Shown: positions 24,549-31,762 of the stretch, in pieces
Numbering within the stretch: position 1 is the first letter of the stretch
How the letters are laid out: each line of letters opens with the position of its first letter
Origin: a virus
Virus genome (UHGV): UHGV-0038492
Length of the DNA: 64,000 bases
Direction: 5' to 3' (one strand)
Notes under the pieces: model-generated
Databases searched by the model: none
Seen by the model: only the letters and a program-made list of their open reading frames with translations
Told to the model about the DNA's origin: nothing
Translations under genes and position numbers: made by a program

Positions 24549-26258
24549 ATGTACGAATTCCACATGACCTTTACCAGCATGGGGGTGAGGGTTGAAGTCC
24601 CGTGCCGACAGATAGAGTCGGCGATACTTAAGTGGGCAGAAGAACATATGCACGCTCCTAAGATGGGCAAGCAATACGGTCGTATATTCACTGAACGTGG
24701 CGATCCGTATTACGCGCATATACCTTCTCTCCGCTCGTTTATCTTCCACAGGAACTTTTCTGAGCGTTTACGCATTATTATTAATCGTACGGCAACCGAA
24801 TTTGGTATTGAGTATAAGCTCTACGAGCATTACTTAACGCAGGGAACACCTTATAGGTGTAAGTTTGAAAACTACGGCTTTAAGATGGTGGAGGACGATG
24901 AGAAATCACGTTTCTTTTACCAGAACGCTGTGGTTGAAACGGCTTGCGAACCAAATCGTTTTCAAACCATCTTTGAAATTGGTACAGGGATGGGTAAGTC
25001 GAAAACGAACATGAAAGTAATGGTACGTAAGGGTGTCAGGACGCTACTGATTCACCGTCCGACGTACATCTCAAAATGGTTGTTTGATTTAACTGAAGAC
25101 CCAACGGGCTTACGTGAGTCGAAAGACGACGTTTTGGTTATCCAAGGCGTTCAGGCTATCTACGAAGCGTTAGAAATGGGGGAATCAGGCGAATTAGACA
25201 AACGTGGGATTAAGGTTATCATTATCTCAACGGTAACGTTGCAACGATTCCTTAAAGAGTACATTAACACTGCCGCAACTAACCCAGTGAACATTGATGA
25301 TTTCTACAACACCTTAGGTGTTGGGTTTTTGTCAATGGATGAAGTGCACGAGCATTTCCATCTGGTGTACATGGCAGGGATAATGCTCAACCCGCCACCG
25401 TCTGTTGAGATGTCTGCGACGTTACAGCCGGGTGAATCAAAAGCGTTTTTAGCCGAACGGTATCGAGAGCGTTTTCCACAAGAGTCACGTATATTCATTC
25501 CGATTATTCCTGCTGTGCACGTTAAAGCGTTGTACTACAGCATTGAGAATAAACGGTTTGCGTGGTGGGCGAATAAGATGACGCCGTATAATCACAAACT
25601 ATTCGAAGGTAAGTTAATAAGTGAGAACATGCACTTATCTTACGCGGATATGGTGTGGGACGTCATCGAGCGAACGTATCTGGCGAGTTACCAGCCTGGT
25701 CAGAAAGTGTTGGCGCTGTTTGCAACCGTTGCGATGTGTGAGTTCTTTACAGAGTACGTGCGAGAGAAACTGGCACAGTCTGATAAGTTCCACGCCCTGA
25801 TGGTTGCGAAATACAACGCGGGGGATTCGTATGACGACTTTATTCAAGCGGATTTCTCGATTTCAACACCAGGGAAAGCAGGCACTGCGGTCGACAAACC
25901 GGGGTTGGTTCACATGTACATTACCACCCCTGTGGAAGACCAGCAGTTAAACCGTCAGATGGCCGGTCGTCCGCGTAAGATACTTCACAACGATTGGGGT
26001 GAACTCGATCCCGTTGTGTGGTTATTCCATTCACTCTCGATAGGGAAACACTGCAATTACTTGAACGCGCGTCAGAAGTCGCTGAGTGATTCCGTGTTGT
26101 CGTTTAAGATAGCCTCTTCACCGTATGTTGTAAGGAAAACCAATGTTACTACCGCCGCAGCCGACCGAGCCAACAGCACCGTATGCCGGGCTGAACTTAG
26201 CAAGTTTTCTCGAAAAGGTTTTAAAGGCATACCCAGACGTCGAAAACGTCGTCGATAA
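24549..26258 (+). CDS. superfamily-2 DExH-box helicase/ATPase
   Basis: motif I 'GTGMGKSKT'; motif II 'SMDEVHEH'. Confidence 0.6.
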   Translation: MYEFHMTFTSMGVRVEVPCRQIESAILKWAEEHMHAPKMGKQYGRIFTERGDPYYAHIPSLRSFIFHRNFSERLRIIINRTATEFGIEYKLYEHYLTQGTPYRCKFENYGFKMVEDDEKSRFFYQNAVVETACEPNRFQTIFEIGTGMGKSKTNMKVMVRKGVRTLLIHRPTYISKWLFDLTEDPTGLRESKDDVLVIQGVQAIYEALEMGESGELDKRGIKVIIISTVTLQRFLKEYINTAATNPVNIDDFYNTLGVGFLSMDEVHEHFHLVYMAGIMLNPPPSVEMSATLQPGESKAFLAERYRERFPQESRIFIPIIPAVHVKALYYSIENKRFAWWANKMTPYNHKLFEGKLISENMHLSYADMVWDVIERTYLASYQPGQKVLALFATVAMCEFFTEYVREKLAQSDKFHALMVAKYNAGDSYDDFIQADFSISTPGKAGTAVDKPGLVHMYITTPVEDQQLNRQMAGRPRKILHNDWGELDPVVWLFHSLSIGKHCNYLNARQKSLSDSVLSFKIASSPYVVRKTNVTTAAADRANSTVCRAELSKFSRKGFKGIPRRRKRRR

Positions 26259-27162: not shown

Positions 27163-29121
27163 ATGTCTGATTCATTAGACCAACGTCCTGGCAACGGACG
27201 CCGTCGTCTACAGACGGAACCTGTACAGGTTCACATCCCTGAGCTCGACTACAGCACTATGTCAGCGGACGATGGGATTATGGCCATTAAACGTGCCAAC
27301 CCACAACTGTCCTTTGCAGAAGCTGAAGAAGCGTACAAAGGACTGAACGTGGTGAAAGAAGAACATATTCTTCAACCGCCTACGTTCGAAGAAGAACCCC
27401 TTCCTGAATCTCTACAGACCGAACTGACAGGACAACCCGTCATTGCTGAAGTTGTAGAGCGTAAAGAAGTGGTCGTTGAAGAACGTAAGCCGGAACGTGT
27501 CCTGGTAGCGGAGAAAACGCGGGAAGAATATGTTCCACCGGCTCCTGAGCCTCAGGCACCTGCGGCGGATCACGAACCAGAAGCCACTCCCGCAGTAAAA
27601 GAGAAAGCTTCTACCGATCGTATCAACTTCGGCGATCAGCCCGTTCACGAAGAGTTCTCGGAAATGGAAGAGGACTCAGAAGCGGCGATTATGGCCAGCT
27701 TCCGCACGCTTATCGGTCTTTGCCAGGACCCGAACCTGGTTGGAAACGATCTGAAGAAATTCTTCTCAAGTATCCCAACGAGCAAAGACGGACGTCTGTT
27801 GTTCAAGTCCGAAGAACAGCGTGATTTGTACGAACGTCTGCGTCGTGCTCTGAATATGACGCCACCGCGTTTGCAGAATAACCTGCAAGCGTTCGATGTG
27901 GCTCTGTCGCGTGACGACACAGCGTGGGAACAGCGAGTACAGTTGCCGGGGATGAATAAACCGGTAGGTCTGATCAGTACCCGTCTCAACCAGCAGACAG
28001 GTGCAATTGCAGCCCTGCGTCGTCGTCGTAAATCCGGTATTCCTAACTGGGTATGGCTACCTGCTACGGGTATCTTTGTCGGTTTCCGTGCACCGCTGGA
28101 GCGCGAGATTTGTGACTTCGATATTGAACTGGCGTTAGAAACCGCGAAGATTGGGATGCAGACTTACGGTCTGATGCTCTCTGCATCTTCTGGTGTGTAC
28201 TTAAGCCACATGATCGAATTCGCTTTACGGTTTGTTACCGATTGCAGCTTAGACTGCGAAGGTAACGACATGAAGACCGTACTGATGGATACCATCGACA
28301 TTGCTGACTACTGGTTACTGTTAATCGGTGTTATGCAGGCGAAGTTCCCAGGTGGTTTACCGTGGACGCTGATTTGTGGTCACGAAGGTTGTGGCCATCA
28401 GGAAGACGTTCGTCTGAACCTGGCACGCTGTATCCGTATGGGGACTTCTCTGTATACGGATATTCAACGTAACCTGTGGGCACTTCAACGCGGTAAAGAC
28501 GACGCGACGATCACCCGTGCCGACCAACGTAAGTTCGTTGAAGAACACATCAAAGACCCATCGGCGATTTTCGAACAAGACGGGATTATCGTTAAGTTCG
28601 GTCGTTCTACTCTGGGTAAATTCTTCGACAACACCGAACGTTGGATTGAAGAAACCAACGCGGCCACAACCTCTGCGTTGGCAGAAAAAGGTACAGAACG
28701 TGAGCGTGAAGACCATTTACGCTTAACCGCTGAGGCACGTCGTCTAACCCGTTATGCGCACATGGTTGAATCTATCACCGTTATGGAAGAAATCTACGAC
28801 GGTGAAGAATCCCACGAAGAACCTATCGTAGAGAAAGATTACGATAAGATCGTCCAGATGTTGGAAGAACTGTCGTCCGATCGTAAATACGTGGCTAACT
28901 TCGAAGGCGCTATTGCGACGTACAACGACCGCAGCCGTCTGGCGGTGTTCGGGTATATGGGGCAACGTTGCCCAGCATGTGGTAAAGCCGATGAAGGCGA
29001 GAAAGAAGGTGTGTATCGTGGTATCGTAACGATTTCCCCGGACCGCGTTTTTTTCGAGCTATCTCGAGTGGTGTTCGAGATTCAGCGGTTTATGAGGGAT
29101 CAATTCGGCGTTACTGGCTAG
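27163..29121 (+). CDS. hypothetical protein with disordered acidic/Pro-rich N-terminus; possible frameshift extension into 29235..29543
   Basis: 652-aa ORF; TTTTTTC slippery heptamer at 29049..29055, 22 codons before the stop. Confidence 0.55.
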   Translation: MSDSLDQRPGNGRRRLQTEPVQVHIPELDYSTMSADDGIMAIKRANPQLSFAEAEEAYKGLNVVKEEHILQPPTFEEEPLPESLQTELTGQPVIAEVVERKEVVVEERKPERVLVAEKTREEYVPPAPEPQAPAADHEPEATPAVKEKASTDRINFGDQPVHEEFSEMEEDSEAAIMASFRTLIGLCQDPNLVGNDLKKFFSSIPTSKDGRLLFKSEEQRDLYERLRRALNMTPPRLQNNLQAFDVALSRDDTAWEQRVQLPGMNKPVGLISTRLNQQTGAIAALRRRRKSGIPNWVWLPATGIFVGFRAPLEREICDFDIELALETAKIGMQTYGLMLSASSGVYLSHMIEFALRFVTDCSLDCEGNDMKTVLMDTIDIADYWLLLIGVMQAKFPGGLPWTLICGHEGCGHQEDVRLNLARCIRMGTSLYTDIQRNLWALQRGKDDATITRADQRKFVEEHIKDPSAIFEQDGIIVKFGRSTLGKFFDNTERWIEETNAATTSALAEKGTEREREDHLRLTAEARRLTRYAHMVESITVMEEIYDGEESHEEPIVEKDYDKIVQMLEELSSDRKYVANFEGAIATYNDRSRLAVFGYMGQRCPACGKADEGEKEGVYRGIVTISPDRVFFELSRVVFEIQRFMRDQFGVTG

Positions 29122-29234
29122 ACCCGAGAGAGATTCCTTCAGACCACGTCATTAACACGCTTAAGTTAGACACCACCTCTTTATTCAAGCAACGCAGTAC
29201 CCGCCCTATCACTTATCAGGAAGCGCATGACGAA

Positions 29235-29543
29235 TTGTTAGGTGCCTACGATTTGTCGATAGGGTTGGACACCGGTTCAAAGCACGTCGGCTTGTCAGAT
29301 TTCGAAAACCCGGAATACGGGAGCTTACACGAAATCTGGATGGAAGTTTATTTGCGTGAGCAGATAAATGAACATTATCGGCTCTCGTTTGACGAGTGGC
29401 TTAATCGCCCTCGTTGGGAGATTATGATGATGCTCCGTGTGCTTAATCGTCGTAAAGCGTCGATTAAGAAAATCATGAACGATGTTGCTGGCAGTGACCC
29501 AGAACTGCAAAATCTTGAAAAAGAGCTTAAGTTGAAAGGTTGA
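29235..29543 (+). CDS. ORF lacking a convincing start; likely the C-terminal extension of 27163..29121 reached by -1 frameshift or a homopolymer indel
   Basis: TTG start with no RBS; same frame is stop-free back to 28995; protein-like translation across 29122..29234. Confidence 0.35.
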   Translation: MLGAYDLSIGLDTGSKHVGLSDFENPEYGSLHEIWMEVYLREQINEHYRLSFDEWLNRPRWEIMMMLRVLNRRKASIKKIMNDVAGSDPELQNLEKELKLKG

Positions 29544-29545
29544 AT

Positions 29546-29590
29546 TTAAGGGAGTCTTAATAGACTCCCTTAGCTTTTTCTTTTTTTTGC
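29546..29590 (+). terminator. rho-independent terminator
   Basis: 'aagggagtcttaatagactccctt' followed by T-run. Confidence 0.7.
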
Positions 29591-29622: not shown

Positions 29623-30474
29623 ATGATTGACATTTATACAGATTACGCCGCCGTTCTTACCGTCAATCGTTCGGAGGAACGTGCTGCACCGTTTCTGGAT
29701 TTAGTCACGCTTTGCATGGACTACGGATACGACGTTGCGTTAAGTGATGTGTACTGGCAACCGTCTTCTGACCCGGCAGACGAAACGGTTCGATTAGAAG
29801 GCATTATCGTTAAGTGTGCGGTAGCGTTAGGTAACCGTCTAGGGATAGCGTTAAATCCCCAGGAAGTTTACCATAAACCCAAAGAGACCGTACGTATTCT
29901 GGACGGTATTACTTCCAAGTTTGAAGAGTTTGAAGACACCGATACGCTTTACGGTATCGTGATGTCAGGCGAGACGCCGGAATACATTCTGGAAAGTATC
30001 TGTCGTTATGTTTACGGTGACGACAATATTCATTTCGAAGATTTGGTTGTTCGGGTGTCTCCTCGTGTAATGACCGTGATGAGAAACTACCTGTCTTCTG
30101 TGACCGTGGATGAACAATTAGCGGCAGGTAACGACAGACGTTTGTCTCGTATTGCTGATTACCTTCGTTTATATCCTCAAAACCCATCAGCATTTGTATT
30201 CCTTAACTTACCAGACCTGCCTGATTTGACCGTGGTTCAGCAGTCGCTGGTCTTCGATGTTGAAGACTACTCGGAAGCCGAGCTGTTGGAAATGTATGCA
30301 GTGGGCTTAACGATTATCGATAACGAGGATTACGAAGATGCGTATGGTGCGTTATCAGAGAACCTGGAGAAGCTCAACAACGAAGGGTTAAAACCTATTC
30401 CTATCTTGCAACCTGCTCTGGAAAGCTTGAAGGAGATTTATAAGGTGGCGGAGGAAGACAATGACGAGATTTGA
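29623..30474 (+). CDS. hypothetical acidic protein (start uncertain; track start 29587 lies in the terminator T-run)
   Basis: ATG at 29623; 3' end overlaps next gene. Confidence 0.45.
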   Translation: MIDIYTDYAAVLTVNRSEERAAPFLDLVTLCMDYGYDVALSDVYWQPSSDPADETVRLEGIIVKCAVALGNRLGIALNPQEVYHKPKETVRILDGITSKFEEFEDTDTLYGIVMSGETPEYILESICRYVYGDDNIHFEDLVVRVSPRVMTVMRNYLSSVTVDEQLAAGNDRRLSRIADYLRLYPQNPSAFVFLNLPDLPDLTVVQQSLVFDVEDYSEAELLEMYAVGLTIIDNEDYEDAYGALSENLEKLNNEGLKPIPILQPALESLKEIYKVAEEDNDEI

Positions 30475-31762
30475 GTTTCTGGTGGCGGCGTGTAAAGCCG
30501 AAGCCTGGCGTCGTTTAGTGTGGCGTATTGCAATATTCAACATGTCAGTGTTCCCGTCGAATCGTGAAGAACCTGAAGCGTTCGATATTACGTATATTGA
30601 CGGAATGCCGCACTACTACGCGGTAGAAGATGGGAAAGGAGATTGGCAGCCCATTACTGATGGCGTGAAAGACCAAGAACTGTTTATTCCTGAAGAACAG
30701 TTTGAGTTGAAAGTCGACGACTACCCAGGATTAGAAGGACCGATTCCTACTACCGTAGGGCGTTATATCTTTAACTGGGTTGTTATCTGGTATGCGTTTG
30801 GTACACGCTTGCCGTATATGGGTATTTCACAAAACCCGTTAGAGTATCGTAAAGAGATGCACCGTCGTTGTTTGGATCACGAAACCGATGAACCTGAGAA
30901 CGAAGGTGCTATTCGTCCGAGCATGATAGAACGCTTTGTAAGCGGTTTACACGAGCTTGCACCGTTAACCGCTGGTATTGCACCAACAGGTACACTTAGA
31001 AGCCTTACAGTGCATCCTGATGCGTATAAAATACGTGATGCGTTGCTATTAAAGCATAAGGACGAGTTAGACGACCCAGCGGTGATTGTTAAGATAGAAA
31101 AAGCACTGGACGAACTGGATAAACAGTGGTTGTCGGGTGACCAATCTATCGAGTTCTATAACTCACCGAAATCACGAATGCGTCGACGTAAGTTGATGCT
31201 GATGTACGGGATTGAATCGTCTTTCCAGGAAGGGGGTAACTATACGTTAATTCCTAACGCATTGGTGGAAGTCGATAAAGCGGGAATGGATAATCTGGTC
31301 GCGAAGTTTAACTCTATTCGTGAAGGTTCGTTCTCGCGTGGTGCGGAAACCGCGAAAGGTGGGGAACAGGTACGTATCATTCAGATGATTTTCCAGAACC
31401 ACCGAATCGTTACAGGTGACTGCGGGACGAAACTCACGCACCCTGTGGTTATCACAAAAGACAACGTAAAACGTTACGTTGGGATGAACGCGATGGTTAA
31501 TGGGAAACTAACCTCCCTGACGGAAGAGTTTTTGAATAGTCAGCTAGGGAAAGTTGTGCGCCTACGCCGACCCATCTTATGTCAATACGGCCACATCGAC
31601 TGCTGTACTGCGTGCTCCTCCGAAGCGAAAGGTGAAGAACCTCGCGCTATCGCAGCGGATATTTCGTCAGCGTTTTCTAACGTTATGTCCGTGGCAATGG
31701 CCGCAATGCACGGTAAAGAAACCGTCGTTCACGAATACGATCCGTTGATCCATATCACCTAA
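30461..31762 (+). CDS. second RNA polymerase beta-prime C-terminal-like protein
   Basis: 'RGAETAKGGEQ...TGDCGT' and 'ILCQYGHIDCCTACSSEAKGE' parallel the bridge-helix and C..YG..C..C elements seen in 22407..24506; GGAGGAAG upstream of ATG. Confidence 0.5.
   Translation: MTRFEFLVAACKAEAWRRLVWRIAIFNMSVFPSNREEPEAFDITYIDGMPHYYAVEDGKGDWQPITDGVKDQELFIPEEQFELKVDDYPGLEGPIPTTVGRYIFNWVVIWYAFGTRLPYMGISQNPLEYRKEMHRRCLDHETDEPENEGAIRPSMIERFVSGLHELAPLTAGIAPTGTLRSLTVHPDAYKIRDALLLKHKDELDDPAVIVKIEKALDELDKQWLSGDQSIEFYNSPKSRMRRRKLMLMYGIESSFQEGGNYTLIPNALVEVDKAGMDNLVAKFNSIREGSFSRGAETAKGGEQVRIIQMIFQNHRIVTGDCGTKLTHPVVITKDNVKRYVGMNAMVNGKLTSLTEEFLNSQLGKVVRLRRPILCQYGHIDCCTACSSEAKGEEPRAIAADISSAFSNVMSVAMAAMHGKETVVHEYDPLIHIT

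Follow-up and report, generated by a model that had tools for sequence, protein, structure and literature searches.

A conserved T-run slip site and a probable programmed −1 frameshift near the end of the jumbo-phage core gene cg18

The virus genome UHGV-0038492 of the UHGV collection was analysed as one stretch of 64,000 nucleotides (nt), referred to below as the window. Its plus strand carries a long open reading frame (ORF) that we assign to the jumbo-phage core gene cg18, followed by a shorter ORF in the −1 frame. A run of seven T's lies close to the end of the long ORF. A previous reading of this DNA, made from the sequence alone, had connected the two ORFs through this run, either by programmed −1 frameshifting or by a homopolymer indel or sequencing error splitting a single gene. 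The coordinates on which that reading was built (ORF 27163..29121, heptamer 29049..29055) all proved correct when the frames were checked against the sequence. The locus comprises the following features.

27163..29121, plus strand: zero-frame gene in frame 1, encoding a short product of 652 amino acids (aa) and 73.9 kDa (ORF list and translation).
29049..29055, plus strand: slippery heptamer T_TTT_TTC, with TTT 29050-52 in the ribosomal P site and TTC 29053-55 in the A site (sequence and frame arithmetic).
29055..29543, plus strand: −1 frame extension of 162 codons plus the stop codon at 29541-29543 (translation).
29055..29121, plus strand: dual-coding overlap, whose bases specify both the final 22 residues of the short form and the initial 22 of the extension.
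29235..29543, plus strand: ORF counted from its first start codon, a TTG, with 102 aa and 12.0 kDa (mechanical call).

The T7 run occupies positions 29048..29054 and is followed by a C at 29055. Since the zero-frame codons read GTT (29047-49), TTT and TTC (29053-55), the heptamer stands in the X_XXY_YYZ register. The zero frame ends 22 codons past the slip site, at the TAG 29119-21. The last stop codon of the −1 frame before the site is at 28992-28994, and the frame is open from 28995 to the stop at 29541-29543, which amounts to 165 codons when measured from the heptamer. The first ATG, GTG or TTG in this frame is the TTG at 29235, situated 240 nt after the frame opens; the earlier statements that the downstream ORF can start only at a TTG and that its frame is free of stops for 240 nt upstream were thus confirmed. 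A −1 shift at the heptamer would append the 162 residues of the extension to residues 1-631 of the upstream protein, generating a long form of 793 aa and 90.4 kDa (27163..29055, then 29055..29540). These translated sizes, 652 and 793 aa, agree with the 652-aa product and the fusion of "roughly 790 aa" expected beforehand. Peptides AISSGVR, DSAVYEGSIR, YWLDPR and EIPSDHVINTLK are predicted products of the −1 frame encoded upstream of any start codon. The claim that the TTG lacks a ribosome binding site came close to the mark: an AGGAAG does lie 11 nt before it, but this motif falls inside conserved codons (YQEA), is itself not conserved and is lost in Asesino, which reads CAAGAAGC. Runs of seven or more T's were found at 13 loci in the window. 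They are not enriched (19 matches against 29 expected), and the run at 29048 is the only one well inside a long ORF; 11 of the 13 lie between ORFs and one sits 11 nt into a short ORF starting with GTG.

Judged by sequence similarity, the upstream gene is a homologue of cg18, which corresponds to phiKZ gp077, PhiPA3 gp074, RAY gp267 and Goslar gp081. This gene belongs to the 72 core genes common to chimallin-encoding (nucleus-forming) jumbo phages; it is defined in Table S3 of the study in question, where its products are listed as "hypothetical protein" (PMC10299810). The 652-aa protein matched PHROG 8054 with an E value of 4e-270, in an alignment reaching the end of the profile, and also matched PHROG 4585. 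Its homologues were detected by tblastn in 144 phage records. PhiPA3 and RAY are linked to the window directly by these searches, and phiKZ and Goslar were reached through a search with PhiPA3 gp074, which also recovers the SPN3US clade. The window itself belongs to the SPN3US group of jumbo phages and is associated with Salmonella. Searched for near-identical DNA, the GenBank phage collection gave no match to it, and the region is about 72% identical in nucleotide sequence to a group of Salmonella and Erwinia jumbo phages with SPN3US, Asesino and phiEaH2. The last 350 residues of the 652-aa protein are identical in two IMG/VR contigs (225 kb and 152 kb), and an NCBI assembly of Salmonella enterica serovar Agona encodes the exact protein, annotated as hypothetical, on a contig of 221,768 bp. 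The cluster formed around the 652-aa form at 90% identity has 282 members, derived from assemblies of public read sets. It seems that this phage travels with Salmonella isolates, in a carrier state or as a contaminant.

Conservation of the site was examined at two depths. The close set consisted of 18 distinct sequences of the SPN3US clade (Seoulvirus, Erskinevirus, Machinavirus, Wellingtonvirus, Derbicusvirus and metagenomic contigs), whose cg18 proteins are 44-82% identical to that of the window over the C-terminal 350 residues. Each of the 18 carries seven T's and then a C in an unchanged register, always 73 nt ahead of a TAG stop, and in all 18 the −1 frame is open from the T run to the end of the downstream ORF. 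Similarity of the downstream part was detected by tblastn from position 29130 onward, that is, from 9 nt past the zero-frame stop. The extension matched PHROG 7580, a family built from the downstream proteins of the SPN3US clade, with an E value of 5e-45; the first position of this profile falls at about 29166, some 23 codons upstream of the TTG at 29235. In the same 18 sequences, the synonymous third positions of CCGGAC (29038-29043, encoding Pro-Asp just before the slip site) are invariant, unlike the surrounding third positions; this hexamer might contribute to a frameshift signal or serve as a pairing partner.

The distant set contained 34 loci, made up of 18 metagenomic contigs and the named phages phiKZ, PhiPA3, PS119XW, Psa21, RAY, SA002, LucasX, RSF1, Moabite, FBKp24, PCH45, Goslar, an EL-like phage, Vibrio phage pVa-21, Halocynthia phage JM-2012 and Bacillus phage AgentSmith. 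For the locus search, a single alignment of distant homologues proved too divergent and was divided into three. At every one of the 34 loci, a run of five to eight T's encodes a conserved C-terminal Phe-Phe (once Leu-Phe and once Phe-Leu), and the downstream ORF is in the −1 frame, which from the run onward stays open for 150-182 codons; the spacing between run and zero-frame stop ranges over 36-142 nt. Grouped into 26 lineages, the loci show a perfect U_UU.U_UU.N heptamer in 21 cases, with T8 runs in six of the 26. Wherever the heptamer is present, the preceding codon keeps a T at the wobble position no matter which amino acid it specifies (V, A, G, L, I, T or S). The extension forms one homologous domain in all 26 lineages aligned. 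The position of the first start codon in the −1 ORF varies between codons 15 and 90. In phiKZ, AgentSmith and RAY, no ATG, GTG or TTG precedes a conserved "AY(D/E)..(F/Y)GI" motif; in the window, the TTG at 29235 falls inside this motif and the conserved residues that precede it, LKLDTTSLFKQRSTRPITYQEAHDE, have no start codon upstream. The phiKZ locus (AF399011, locus positions 1864-2367) reads ACT TTT TTT, a T7 run within PHIKZ077, and continues into a −1 ORF of 167 codons without any ATG, GTG or TTG before codon 87. Degenerate sites, with T5 or with T6 out of register, were seen in the five lineages represented by pVa-21, a Vibrio-like IMG/VR contig, PhiPA3, PS119XW and Psa21. All five have a start codon by codon 38 of the −1 ORF, whereas several lineages with a perfect heptamer have none before codon 54-90. 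Some of the degenerate-site lineages may have moved from frameshifting toward independent initiation.

A gapless alignment of 16 sequences of the SPN3US clade was used to score each reading frame by the synonymous share of its codon differences, with the following results.

120 nt before the site: zero frame 0.35, −1 frame 0.07, +1 frame 0.10.
63-nt overlap: zero frame 0.29, −1 frame 0.32, +1 frame 0.05.
66 nt after the zero-frame stop: zero frame 0.10, −1 frame 0.43, +1 frame 0.06.

These substitution patterns indicate that the −1 frame is under purifying selection inside the overlap and straight after the zero-frame stop. Column conservation at third positions was 0.57 both before the site and after the stop, and in the overlap it was 0.77-0.87 at all three codon positions. 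Dual coding explains the high nucleotide conservation 3′ of the run well enough.

Taken as a whole, these comparisons suggest that the cg18 gene probably contains a programmed −1 ribosomal frameshift that yields forms of 652 and 793 aa. According to this scheme, ribosomes translating 27163..29121 would reach GTT TTT TTC with tRNA-Phe in both the P and the A sites, and a fraction of them would slip back by one base onto TTT TTT and resume with the CGA at 29055. Ribosomes that do not shift would end at the TAG 29119-21 and release the short form, which is predicted to finish in an α-helix; those that shift would exchange most of this terminal helix for the 162-aa extension, predicted to consist of a linker of about 40 aa and a small helical domain. 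The two forms would share residues 1-631 and their ratio would be set by the frequency of slipping. The ribosomal origin of the shift, its efficiency and the need for both forms are what we infer here. The first option of the sequence-only reading, programmed −1 frameshifting, thus gains support from the retention of the run, the register and the open −1 frame in all of about 50 related loci and from the protein-coding substitution pattern of the −1 frame inside the overlap. U_UU.U_UU.C and U_UU.U_UU.U belong to the most efficient class of heptamers in Escherichia coli, giving a shift above 0.1% without a stimulator; they are under-represented in E. coli genes and used by insertion sequence (IS) elements, and U_UU.C and U_UU.U are the best tetramers after A_AA.G (PMC4066793).

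Several observations weigh against this interpretation. No stable or clearly conserved RNA structure was found downstream of the site, either with RNAalifold or in the individual folds, and folds of single sequences were no better than those of shuffled controls (z-scores from −0.8 to +1.9). Inspection by eye revealed no convincing Shine-Dalgarno-like stimulator upstream, although no systematic scan was made. With no convincing stimulator, the efficiency of frameshifting may be low. Moreover, no natural in-frame fusion of the two parts was present among the database proteins searched, transcriptional slippage is expected to give an identical protein, and an ATG occurs early in the −1 ORF of some lineages (codon 40 in SPN3US, codon 20 in Psa21), where independent initiation may add to shifting or replace it.

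The hairpin "tcgag ctat ctcga" previously said to follow the heptamer immediately does exist, at 29054-29067. It begins inside the heptamer, though, and thus without the spacer of a classical downstream stimulator, a part it cannot play. Its first arm is CGTG or CGCG, not CGAG, in 11 of the 16 aligned sequences, and it was discarded as a conserved stimulator. A 7-bp stem pairing 29061-67 with 29075-81 was likewise discarded, being broken in many relatives. The RNAalifold consensus contains one further candidate:

29062..29086, plus strand: candidate weak stem-loop in which 29062-29068 pairs with 29081-29086, 6 nt past the heptamer.

In this helix, 97.8% of the cells are paired, compared with 12-61% in slid controls; it includes one covarying pair (A-U to U-A or U-G) and has a consensus energy of −1.3 kcal/mol. 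Its role is uncertain. An Rfam search gave sub-threshold chance matches only, located at the terminator described below, and nothing relevant to the slip site.

The downstream ORF could instead be a separate gene, initiated at the TTG 29235 or at a non-canonical ATT (29133 or 29151), possibly by re-initiation after the TAG, so that no fusion is made. The locus is usually annotated in this way: none of the 22 records inspected marks slippage, and 21 of them show two coding sequences, the exception being SEGD1, whose fused coding sequence stems from a garbled patch. An ATG near the start of the conserved region in SPN3US, Machinavirus and Psa21 and the weak AGGAAG 11 nt before the TTG also speak for two genes. 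Against them stands the fact that the coding pattern and the amino-acid conservation of the −1 frame begin in the overlap, upstream of every start codon; a −1 coding pattern that sets in within the upstream gene, without a start codon, is the strongest argument against independent initiation. The TTG would cut the conserved region short, PHROG 7580 beginning some 23 codons before it, and in phiKZ, AgentSmith and RAY there is no start codon at all ahead of the conserved motif. Despite varying spacing, about 50 of 50 loci preserve the −1 relation and a frame that is open as far back as the T run, and the AGGAAG is not conserved. Two independent genes appear quite improbable on these grounds, and the TTG-started ORF is probably not a gene of its own. 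A further explanation would be that a single 793-aa gene has been split by a one-base error or deletion and that the run is really T8. Homopolymers are error-prone, and the SEGD1 record (KU726251) does carry a single fused coding sequence, of 795 aa. Yet SEGD1 retains the T7 run: its fusion is due to a scrambled patch of 17 nt with one extra base, lying about 15-30 nt upstream of the run (locus positions 2671-2688, equivalent to about 29020-29037 of the window). This patch differs from SPN3US at nearly every base and destroys the conserved RGIVTISPDR motif, and it looks like an artefact of assembly or sequencing. Independent projects using different sequencing technologies recovered the same −1 relation at about 50 loci, with runs from T5 to T8; the zero-frame tail and the position of its stop are conserved; and the same 652-aa form is found in the two IMG/VR contigs, the NCBI Salmonella assembly and the 282-member cluster. 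The number and diversity of the genomes, together with the conserved tail and stop, exclude a sequencing error or a split pseudogene for practical purposes, and the second option of the sequence-only reading was rejected given the presence of the 652-aa form in hundreds of independent assemblies.

A shift made by RNA polymerase rather than by the ribosome would give the same 793-aa protein, and is the alternative to which we allow the most room, although it too is unlikely. Here the phage multisubunit or the host enzyme would add one U at the T run, producing U8 messenger RNAs. The element is indeed a homopolymer, T7 in the window and T8 in six of 26 lineages, and by frame arithmetic an inserted U yields the same junction, ...VFF-RAIS.... 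No strong ribosomal stimulator was found. For efficient slippage, bacterial RNA polymerase usually requires a run of about nine or more, and the runs at this locus, T7 in the window and T5-T8 in the relatives, are below that figure. Furthermore, the arrangement is kept with as few as five or six T's in pVa-21, PS119XW, PhiPA3 and Psa21. Such short runs still provide a U_UU.Y tetramer in the A site or even the full heptamer, as in ACT TTT TTC, which fits re-pairing on the ribosome better than a dependence on run length. One variant, which we regard as a long shot, is that the phage's own multisubunit polymerase inserts the U inside the phage nucleus; the ratio of the two forms would then be set at transcription and could change with a switch of polymerase. 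If that were so, this would be the first case in which programmed transcriptional realignment is attributed to a multisubunit polymerase encoded by a phage.

As for the proteins that a ribosomal frameshift would generate, the short form and the extension were modelled separately with AlphaFold2. Residues 1-165 (27163-27655) form an acidic, low-complexity tract rich in Glu, Pro, Ala and Val and were left out of the model; relatives differ in the length of this N-terminal tract, and their proteins span 528 to 706 aa. Residues 165-652 gave a model with a predicted local distance difference test score (pLDDT) of 86 and a predicted template modelling score (pTM) of 0.86. In this model the slip site coincides with the start of the last helix, so the long form is predicted to lack most of that helix. 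For the extension, a model of low confidence (mean pLDDT 61) shows a helical domain behind a disordered linker of about 40 aa. Cys405, Cys410, Cys603 and Cys606 (28375-28392 and 28969-28980; C-x4-C ... C-x2-C) are strictly or almost strictly conserved across relatives ranging from the SPN3US to the phiKZ group, a pattern that suggests a probable zinc-binding site.

Searches for a function gave few leads. Neither part of the protein nor the neighbouring ORFs matched Pfam, only families of "unknown function" were matched in PHROGs, and a search of PDB structures with the cg18 fold returned no match. Comparison with BFVD models by fold gave template modelling (TM) scores of 0.67-0.96 for members of the cg18 family. 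The remote Foldseek matches in BFVD, whose TM scores normalised to the target were no more than 0.46-0.55, were a "Baseplate hub assembly protein, T4-like" (E 4e-4), a "hub assembly chaperone" (E 8e-4) and a "baseplate hub subunit" (E 1e-2), and homologues bear a baseplate-hub assembly name in a few GenBank records. As a lead drawn from these models, the short and long forms may constitute an assembly factor made in two versions, like G and GT. The preprint describing the Goslar virion by cryo-electron microscopy makes no mention of gp81 or gp80, and the "gp77" named in papers on Goslar, PCH45 and PhiPA3 refers to other genes.

One of the nearest parallels to this arrangement is offered by the tail genes of phage lambda. 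Xu, Hendrix and Duda reportedly described, in 2004, a conserved −1 frameshift in lambda G/GT and in its counterparts in most long-tailed phages. As in G/GT, the cg18 shift would take place near the 3′ end of a gene, which for cg18 is only putatively of morphogenesis type, and give short and long proteins with a common N-terminal part; in both cases the shift is conserved over great divergence and the annotation usually shows two overlapping or adjacent ORFs. However, the cg18 protein has 652 aa compared with about 140 aa for G, to which it has no similarity; its gene lies between helicase and virion RNA polymerase subunit genes, not between tube and tape-measure genes; and the heptamer is U_UUU_UUC here as opposed to G_GGA_AAG. 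Given the gene position, the 652-aa size and the lack of a Pfam match, we do not count cg18 among the tail assembly chaperone pairs of the G/GT type. Gene 10A/10B of phage T7 yields a minor, C-terminally extended product through a −1 shift at a U-rich tRNA-Phe site close to its end. The position and type of the site are alike in cg18, but gene 10 encodes the major capsid protein and the cg18 extension is far longer (162 aa) and has its own conserved domain. The orfA-orfB pairs of the IS3 and IS1 families use, as cg18 would, a −1 ribosomal frameshift on X_XX.Z_ZZ.N, and U_UU.U_UU.C is among the motifs of IS elements (PMC4066793). IS sites usually have a clear pseudoknot, hairpin or Shine-Dalgarno stimulator, whereas none is evident in cg18, and the biology is unrelated. 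Among the T4 proteins listed as hub assembly chaperones are gp26 and gp51, the latter missing from the particle (PMC3004832). The cg18 fold remotely resembles BFVD models of T4-like hub assembly proteins, but the cg18 protein is two to three times larger than gp51 and gp26 and has no Pfam or PDB match. To our knowledge, T4 does not use a frameshift in the genes for these two proteins.

While −1 frameshifting itself is a well-known mechanism and not new, the site described here appears to be unreported: a search of the full-text literature found no report of a frameshift in cg18 or in any gene of a phiKZ-like phage. In the 22 records, the downstream start is placed inconsistently at ATG, GTG or TTG, with the two coding sequences either 12-219 nt apart or overlapping by up to 135 nt. 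SPN3US uses an ATG and Asesino a GTG 12 nt past the stop; the Wellington start precedes the stop by 30 nt, and other genomes start the gene 114-165 nt beyond it. The phiKZ annotation covers no more of the extension than its final 81 codons, named PHIKZ076.4. Should the frameshift prove real, current annotation overlooks a second, larger product of a core gene in a much-studied phage family, the proteome lists used for mass spectrometry and for assignments in cryo-electron microscopy would be corrected, and synonymous changes in the heptamer would offer a simple genetic handle. Together with the remote resemblance to T4 hub assembly proteins, it would suggest that giant phages use short and long assembly factors in a fixed ratio, like G and GT. 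On the side of the assemblies, Salmonella phages SPFM6, 7, 8, 10, 12, 14 and 20 have fragmentary proteins of odd sizes at this locus (91-638 aa, partial matches), which suggests local frameshift errors in several SPFM assemblies.

The surroundings of the gene in the window, where plus-strand ORFs are tightly packed across the 64 kb, are as follows.

24549..26258: helicase-like gene, the upstream neighbour, with two small ORFs between it and the 652-aa ORF.
29546..29583, plus strand: hairpin resembling an intrinsic terminator, with a T tail, directly 3′ of the −1 frame stop; its 12-bp stem is followed by CTTTTTCTTT.
Ahead of the polymerase gene: 295-aa ORF, a downstream neighbour.
30461..31762: gene for an RNA polymerase β subunit, a subunit of the virion RNA polymerase, also a downstream neighbour.

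Runs of seven or more T's in the window lie at 2717, 8489, 19775, 24529, 26564, 29048, 29581, 37693, 47345, 49390, 56884 and 61386, with neighbouring positions. Apart from those at 29048 and 19775 they are intergenic, typically the tails of terminators and often placed after terminator-like hairpins. All of them are on the plus strand and there is not one run of seven A's, a strong asymmetry that agrees with the mostly plus-strand order of the genes.

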